From: Escherichia coli
GTDB lineage: Bacteria; Pseudomonadota; Gammaproteobacteria; Enterobacterales; Enterobacteriaceae
Assembly (NCBI RefSeq): GCF_003790525.1
Contig: NZ_CP033635.1
DNA length: 64,000 nucleotides
Reading direction: 5' to 3' (one strand)
The translations under genes were made by a program, and so were the position numbers. Shown here piece after piece: positions 60,774-61,403 of this stretch (position 1 is its first letter; each line of letters opens with the position of its first letter). A model generated the notes under the pieces. That model saw only the letters and a list, made by a program, of their open reading frames with translations. It searched no databases and was not told the DNA's origin.

Positions 60774-61154
60774 TCAACCGAGGTCGCTGCAATAAACCAT
60801 CGCGCTTTGATTCCCCCGATGAAGAGGTGACTGGCAGCGACTTCCTGAGCGACGACTTGTCTTTCCATCAATAGCGACTACCTGAGAAGATAAAACAGGA
60901 AGGACTTCTGAACCCCATCGCCGGAACGCAGCTTCAAACTGCTCAGGGACAATCAGCCCAAAAAGACGGGCGAATGTATCATGGGAAGGTATGCCATTTT
61001 TTAGAGGTAAAAAACTGGCGGAGCCACTCAATGCGTTGCCTGCCCAGAGCTCAATTTCCTGAAAATTATCCGCACCGACCAGCACACCACAAACGGCAAT
61101 GGTCAATGTATCAACCAGAGTGTGCCTGACTTGTCCAGGGCTGACAGGGATCAT
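60774..61154 (-). pseudogene. ISAs1-family (H-repeat-associated) transposase, N-terminal fragment
   Basis: LPLKNGIPSHDTFARLF and VVAIDGKTSRRS motifs of ISAs1 transposases; about 126 of the expected roughly 380 aa, with a divergent tail suggesting frameshift. Confidence 0.7.
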
Positions 61155-61269
61155 GTATTGAGATGAATATATCGGTAACCGGCGGTATATGAGACATAAT
61201 ATATCCCTTTGATAAAAAAGGTTATGTTGACATATTTATCCTGCATGTCACGTATCATTATTTTTCATG

Positions 61270-61403
61270 CGATTGCCCTGCGGTTACCACCGCTCACAGT
61301 TAGTAAAGGACTGGGCGGAAGTGGTCAATATAAGGTTGCATTACCTTCCTCCTTATAGTCCGAATCTGAATCCGATTGAACGGATGTGGAAAAATGCTGC
61401 TTA
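61270..61403 (+). pseudogene. IS630/Tc1-family transposase, C-terminal fragment
   Basis: Frame translation gives ...HYLPPYSPNLNPIERMWKNAA*, the conserved DDE-region tail of IS630-type transposases; no intact ORF. Confidence 0.6.

Follow-up and report, generated by a model that had tools for sequence, protein, structure and literature searches.

The window analysed here is a stretch of 64,000 nucleotides of Escherichia coli DNA (contig NZ_CP033635.1). Between 60723 and 61513 it carries the remains of three insertion sequences (ISs), which together we refer to as the scar. They sit in a 3'-to-3' gap between two convergent genes, a TPR gene and an EcsC gene, in a large genomic island that is rich in ISs, and close to the end with the integrase. 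The features of the region, with the recognizable parts of each IS remnant, are as follows.

57892-59339, plus strand: left end of the island, 85-100% identical to related islands at other chromosomal sites
58057-59250, plus strand: P4-type tyrosine integrase (Pfam Arm-DNA-bind_3, Phage_int_M and Phage_integrase)
59617-60672, plus strand: gene for a TPR-repeat protein (Pfam TPR), part of the left module, ~97% identical to copies beside lpxM
60700-60722, minus strand: lpxM remnant, the last 6 codons and stop (QGEDPY-stop), matching the C-terminus of LpxM in LH50-c (...SGEEDPY-stop); the rest is cut off by the terminus of element A
60723-61280/1, minus strand: element A (ISAs1-A), a member of the ISAs1 family with an internal deletion and frameshifts, whose nearest named intact element is ISPa60
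60723-60742, minus strand: degenerate right-end region of element A, assigned by position
60743-60745, minus strand: stop codon of element A
60746-60817, minus strand: last 24 (C-terminal) codons of element A, from tblastn against ISPa60
60818, minus strand: deletion joint of element A
60819-61130, minus strand: codons ~22-126 of element A, with an out-of-frame stretch at 61012-61041
61135-61197, minus strand: codons 1-21 of element A (MSHIPPVTDIFISIHDPCQPW), in a frame that differs from that of the next block
61264-61280, minus strand: left inverted repeat (IRL) of element A, 17/17 bases identical to the ISPa60 IRL
61282-61392, plus strand: internal scrap of an IS630-family element, 111 bp corresponding to codons 253-289 of the ISEc40 transposase, including the NPIE motif with the catalytic glutamate
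61393-61513, minus strand: element B (ISAs1-B), 121 bp from the 5' part of a second ISAs1-family element, which resembles ISKpn31
61420-61394, minus strand: ATG and 8 further codons of element B (MNINTIKQH), preceded by a 5' leader
last base 61512/61513, minus strand: left inverted repeat of element B, (T)AGGGCAAGATCATGAAC
61514-64000, minus strand: right module, the island backbone, 96.1% identical to AR_0085 with the identity starting exactly at 61514
61717-62385, minus strand: EcsC-family gene (Pfam EcsC)
62747-63100, minus strand: hypothetical gene
63313 onward, minus strand: outer-membrane protein gene

The annotation of GF60 gives the same arrangement in its wider context: dps, glnH, the tyrosine integrase, the TPR protein, an 'ISAs1 family transposase', a 'transposase, incomplete', and then the EcsC-family protein, a hypothetical protein, an outer-membrane protein, yebF, dolP and, further on, sitA. 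On identical loci RefSeq thus already labels two of the pieces. Some small, unannotated cysteine-rich ORFs with CxxC pairs lie between the EcsC, hypothetical and outer-membrane protein genes, at 62465-62686 (with only weak matches to zinc ribbons) and in the region 63158-63250; a similar sequence of 'TSGTNECNRG' type recurs near 63160-63230.

The largest of the three remnants is element A. An ORF on its minus strand (60774-61154) matches the Pfam domain PF13808, DDE_Tnp_1_assoc (E 4.5e-22; 78.4 bits, cut-off 32.3), and the NCBIfam ISAs1 transposase model NF033564 (89.6 bits, cut-off 70). When the full 373-aa ISPa60 transposase is used as a tblastn query, three collinear minus-strand segments are recovered: aa 1-19 at 61197-61141, aa 17-126 at 61148-60819 (61% identity, E 8e-44) and aa 350-372 at 60817-60749 (17/23 identical, 74%, E 7e-6), the last followed by a stop codon. 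Both coding ends are kept, and what has been lost is ~223 internal codons (~670 bp; aa ~127-349), the catalytic core. A three-frame reading against the closest relatives shows three small frameshifting indels, plus a change of frame at the deletion joint. No single ORF of ~370 aa with a complete DDE catalytic domain (PF01609) is left. Element A is a dead derivative and not a functional member of the ISAs1 family.

The frame changes also bear on the 126-aa ORF that is annotated here. One stretch of it, RQRIEWLRQF at 61012-61041, is in another frame than its neighbours, and relatives carry ENRLEWLREF at this place. Because the native frame switches between codons 1-21, the next block and this stretch, the ORF owes its existence to shifts that happen to compensate each other, and its start is not the native one.

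The two termini of element A are preserved to different degrees. The left inverted repeat of ISPa60, CAGGGCAATCGCATGAA, has an exact copy at 61280-61264. The right repeat has ~12 matches in 17-20 positions, and its best local alignment with the left end is equalled in 463 of 2000 shuffles. It is therefore too degenerate for a complementarity test, and we place the right terminus by position: the C-terminal codons, the stop-to-terminus distance (20 nt, compared with 19 nt in ISPa60) and the end of the flank homology all point to 60723. The stop codon and the TTCAT that follows it are conserved. ISAs1-family elements generate target-site duplications of 8-10 bp. The left flank of element A, ...CCCCCTGAC, and the right flank, CGGTTACCAC, contain no direct repeat, so the target-site duplication that the initial annotation had suggested looking for is not there. 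Its absence fits a replacement of the flanks after element A had inserted.

How close is element A to anything known? ISPa60, annotated on IncX5 and Pseudomonas plasmids, shares the identical left repeat; the amino acid identity is 61% for aa 17-126 and 74% for the final 23 aa. In contrast to the 1228 bp of ISPa60, element A measures ~558 bp; missing from it are aa ~127-349, which make up the DDE_Tnp_1 catalytic core, and it has the three frameshifts and the degenerate right repeat and is without a target duplication. Since the DNA identity is only ~65%, element A belongs to a different ISAs1 species. A sensitive DNA search of E. coli genomes and a plasmid collection gave no match to the ISAs1 part, and in a tblastn search of the plasmid collection ISPa60 was the best hit, at 61% amino acid identity. 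Relatives in a search of 5.8 billion proteins were all short or truncated and at most 79% identical, two of the matches being this same locus. Degenerate peptide patterns were scanned against 100,044 species-representative genomes as well: the first pattern occurred at 0 loci and the second at 6, with a best amino acid identity of 66% (Vreelandella, Ectothiorhodospira). In the E. coli genomes, plasmids, protein collection and species-representative genomes, then, we found no intact parent closer than ~66% at the amino acid level.

The IS630 scrap lies within an ORF on the plus strand (61267-61404) that matches PF13358, DDE_3 (E 2.8e-13; 50.4 bits, cut-off 28.6). The same ORF scores 57.4 bits against the IS630 model NF033545; with just 37 codons left, this falls short of the cut-off of 100 set for the whole protein. 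The 111 bp are 88.3% identical to ISEc40 at the nucleotide level (E 4e-30), a match that is found in hundreds of genomes. ISEc40 itself occurs, e.g. beside iroN in E. coli Nissle 1917, as an element of about 1.1 kb; compared with it the scrap has no ends, and both its borders lie inside the transposase ORF (codons 253 and 289 of 341), with the last 52 codons missing. IS630-family elements duplicate a TA target (PMC3606827). Neither terminal inverted repeats nor a TA duplication were found at 61282-61392. Over codons 253-289 the scrap and ISEc40 are 100% identical as protein (37/37 aa), and all 13 nucleotide differences are synonymous. For this reason the scrap derives not from ISEc40 itself but from a distinct, once-functional isoform that evolved under selection. 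It has also suffered no visible decay since it was cut.

Element B, the third remnant, resembles the sequence that immediately precedes the start of the ISKpn31 transposase gene on KPC plasmids, with 82.7% identity in 73 bp (E 5e-7 in a search of 28 Gb); to another ISAs1 element, beside qnrS, it is 76% identical over 88 bp. It shares the repeat CAGGGCAAGATC(G/A)(C/T)GAAC with ISKpn31 of blaKPC plasmids and with the qnrS-side element. In these three independent elements the point of divergence from the flanking DNA is one shared CAGGGC position, and on this basis the terminus of element B is placed at 61512/61513. A repeat search gave no clear inverted-repeat pair for ISKpn31. Unlike its two relatives, element B is reduced to a repeat, a leader and nine codons, and its last base is T rather than C, or is missing.

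The initial annotation had described two fragments at this spot, an N-terminal one of ISAs1 type on the minus strand and a C-terminal one of IS630 type on the plus strand, neither of them intact. The family assignments and strands are borne out by the domain matches given above and by the ISEc40 match at 61282-61392 (88% nucleotide identity), similarities that greatly exceed chance, and neither piece is intact, element A lacking its internal codons and the IS630 piece its ends. The terms 'N-terminal' and 'C-terminal' have to be dropped, as the ISAs1 piece is an internal deletion that keeps C-terminal codons, stop and exact left repeat, and the IS630 piece is itself internal. Both fragments are there, yet the count of two falls short by element B, which lies mostly outside the interval first described. 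That the locus holds just two truncated transposase genes side by side is accordingly an unlikely account. In its favour both domain matches are real and RefSeq annotates the locus in this way; against it stand the 24 C-terminal codons, stop and exact IRL of the ISAs1 piece, the loss from the IS630 piece of its last 52 codons and both ends, and the third scrap at 61393-61513. As a complete description it is refuted by the ISPa60 C-terminal match (E 7e-6) and the ISKpn31 match (E 5e-7).

The flanks of the scar have different relatives. To the left, 59379-60722 is 97.3% identical to LH50-c by blastn, and the same segment is also present on ETEC plasmids, with the TPR gene followed by a convergent lpxM. 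The homology to all other loci that carry it (LH50-c and the ETEC plasmids) ends exactly at 60722. Islands of the AR_0085 type have a related integrase (85% nucleotide identity) with EcsC directly after it, 118 bp there standing against 2174 bp in the window. For the 39 bp at 59340-59378 there was no match in the fetched loci, including those with the AR_0085 or the LH50-c arrangement. The three gene orders compare as follows.

LH50-c: TPR-lpxM-cptA-GT4-deacetylase-YebF-dolP-DoxX-sitA
AR_0085: int-EcsC-hyp-OMP-yebF-dolP-DoxX-sitA
window: int-TPR-lpxM'-[scar]-EcsC-hyp-OMP-yebF-dolP-DoxX-sitA

These orders, together with the limits of flank homology at 60722 and 61514, place the scar exactly at the seam between two blocks with different relatives, and they support the proposal of the initial annotation that the spot marks a join of two cargo modules. 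Either block may be the newcomer: in SCU-387 a diverged TPR gene (74% nucleotide identity) also follows the integrase, and the integrase-TPR side may be an ancestral variant of the backbone rather than an insertion. The SCU-387 island (NZ_CP051688.1, 1600000-1620500) is likewise situated at glnH and carries a pap operon (P fimbriae, papG-II). Its integrase is adjoined by the diverged TPR gene and a fragment of a phosphoethanolamine transferase, which suggests that TPR and LPS-modification genes have long formed a module next to the integrase in this family of islands.

Four junctions can be read within and around the scar. At 60722|60723 an IS end meets unrelated DNA, with the terminus placed by position and by the end of the flank homology. 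At 61280/1|61282 the exact left end of element A abuts the interior of the IS630 element, 61282 being one base past the last base of the repeat. At 61513|61514 element B meets, with its left end, the island backbone that lies upstream of EcsC. Junctions of this kind are expected from transposition or IS-mediated deletion, and an IS end set against the interior of another IS is what an insertion of the first element into the second leaves behind, or a deletion driven from that IS end. The remaining junction, 61392|61393, joins the interior of the IS630 element to the interior of element B (codon 9-10); as two IS interiors are fused here, it is a deletion joint. The repeated insertion and deletion that had been suspected at this spot is thus well documented, in three IS-end junctions, one interior-interior joint, a ~670 bp deletion and three small indels.

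A possible history runs as follows. The IS630 element would have been present first, and element A would have transposed into it, while element B would have transposed into the integrase-EcsC spacer. Later, adjacent deletions mediated by the ISs, or recombination in which IS copies from two variants of the island took part, may have removed lpxM-cptA-GT4-deacetylase along with most of the IS630 element and of element B, and this would have fused the TPR-lpxM' segment to the EcsC-OMP-yebF backbone. Element A would afterwards have lost the ~670 bp of its catalytic core and gained the three small indels. The order of these events is conjecture, since no intermediate state was found, be it an lpxM cut by an intact element A with its duplication or a complete copy of element B within the spacer between integrase and EcsC.

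The distribution of the scar helps to date it. The region 60600-61700 is present at 100% identity in 9 of 5426 complete E. coli genomes, on the chromosome and mostly in chicken isolates, and in each of the nine the scar is a single occurrence of this same locus. The islands that carry it are found after glnH (window and GF60), ycjD (strain 135), lptG (CM2) and gcvP (TUM9803), i.e. at four chromosomal sites, and the scar is identical base for base in all of them. From 60095 to 64000 the window and strain 135 do not differ at a single base; the 62 differences between them are all located to the left of this stretch. The identity across four sites and the lack of differences from strain 135 indicate that the island has spread recently and that the scar was finished before it did so. 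The word 'old' in the initial annotation thus holds for the element histories, which are multi-step, but not for the spread of the finished scar. As a separate observation, the integrase-TPR spacer (59252-59377) accounts for ~25 of the 62 differences from strain 135, including a 4-nt indel, and is a hot spot of difference between these near-identical islands.

Nothing in the scar is able to transpose or to encode a working protein, and it is a passive passenger of the island. No Rfam match was obtained over 57700-62500, and scans of the scar region for promoters and terminators gave counts at chance level. With these results, and with its place between the 3' ends of convergent genes, the scar is best regarded as inert. 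Our preferred reading, to which we give a probability of about 0.85, is that three dead insertion sequences make up a 791-bp composite scar (60723-61513) at the seam of two modules in a mobile island, that this scar is inert, and that it was assembled before the island spread.

Two further readings concern element A alone. It could be a MITE-like, non-autonomous deletion derivative that was moved in its short form by a full-length relative acting in trans; in favour of this are the left repeat, which is exact, and the boundary, which lies where the right terminus is expected. We consider this very unlikely: among the 5426 complete E. coli genomes it has a single locus, the plasmid collection holds no other copy, and the peptide-derived pattern scans of the 100,044 species-representative genomes yielded no close relative, just as no intact parent closer than ~66% at the amino acid level was found. 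The missing target-site duplication and the degenerate right-end repeat also speak against mobility in the short form, and the three extra frameshifts fit decay in place. The other reading takes the 126-aa ORF (60774-61154) to be a domesticated N-terminal DNA-binding fragment that acts as a regulator or an inhibitor of transposition. The ORF is indeed open and annotated as a protein, with a nearly complete Pfam N-terminal domain, yet its ATG is not the native start (which is 61197, in another frame), eleven middle codons at 61012-61041 are out of the native frame, and its tail is an out-of-frame read-through of the deletion joint. Given also the lack of a promoter signal above chance and the occurrence of the ORF at this one locus only, domestication is the least probable of the explanations considered here, and we give it hardly any weight.

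The composite-scar reading leaves room for one bolder extension. The scar could be a crossover point where two variants of one island family swapped their LPS-modification genes (TPR-lpxM-cptA) for EcsC-OMP genes, with element A, given its exact left repeat and its right boundary at the expected place, perhaps still mobilisable in trans and the island integrating into CTCCCC-N3-GGGGAG palindromes. In this combined form the idea is a speculative one that we think is very probably wrong.

The sites at which the island is integrated deserve a description of their own. The island is not located at a tRNA gene; in all loci compared, the last chromosomal bases form a short palindrome, CCCC-NNN-GGGGAGG, and the island sequence AT(C/T)TATT follows directly. 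In the window the left junction of the island lies within 57860-58060. The glnH-glnP spacer is the site in the window, GF60, UTME-7 and SCU-387. A site internal to ulaE, at CTCCCCGCCGGGGAG, is used in both orientations, AR_0085 having one and NT1W22 and AR_0017 the other. An identical integrase protein (WP_072648864.1) is encoded at three of these island sites, and integrases of this group occur in 90 of the 5426 complete E. coli genomes. From these comparisons of sequence, short CTCCCC-N3-GGGGAG palindromes at no fewer than five chromosomal loci appear to serve the island as integration targets, with either orientation possible. Several of the target sites look like boxC-type repeats. In GF60 the island exceeds 100 kb (NZ_CP172185.1, 3866570 to beyond 3974000), and its cargo includes a sitA remnant, iol, ter, an S6 autotransporter peptidase, sodC, a YadA-like adhesin and dozens of IS fragments. 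The far end of the island (glnP, attR) was not found within ~107 kb of GF60 or ~49 kb of NT1W22. A search of the literature on the island, on boxC-targeting integrases and on features of the ISAs1 family returned nothing specific.

How much should be made of the scar itself? It is routine IS debris, already partly annotated. IS debris at the module borders of genomic islands is commonplace, and this example is typical and low in novelty. The IS-scarred module junctions of E. coli pathogenicity and fitness islands likewise have nested and truncated ISs at cargo borders, and we see no essential difference from them; the whole island carries many other IS fragments. The finding nevertheless has some practical uses. 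The annotated 'ISAs1 family transposase' of 110-126 aa is an artefact of a pseudogene and should be left out of gene counts. The breakpoints 60722|60723 and 61513|61514 provide a clean marker for a hybrid island lineage in poultry-associated E. coli, and they show that the lpxM-cptA block for lipid A/LPS modification has been lost from this island variant. The more interesting biology is that of the carrier island with its multiple palindromic integration sites, rather than that of the scar. If it is as yet undescribed, integration into such palindromes would be an unusual class of target for a P4-type integrase.
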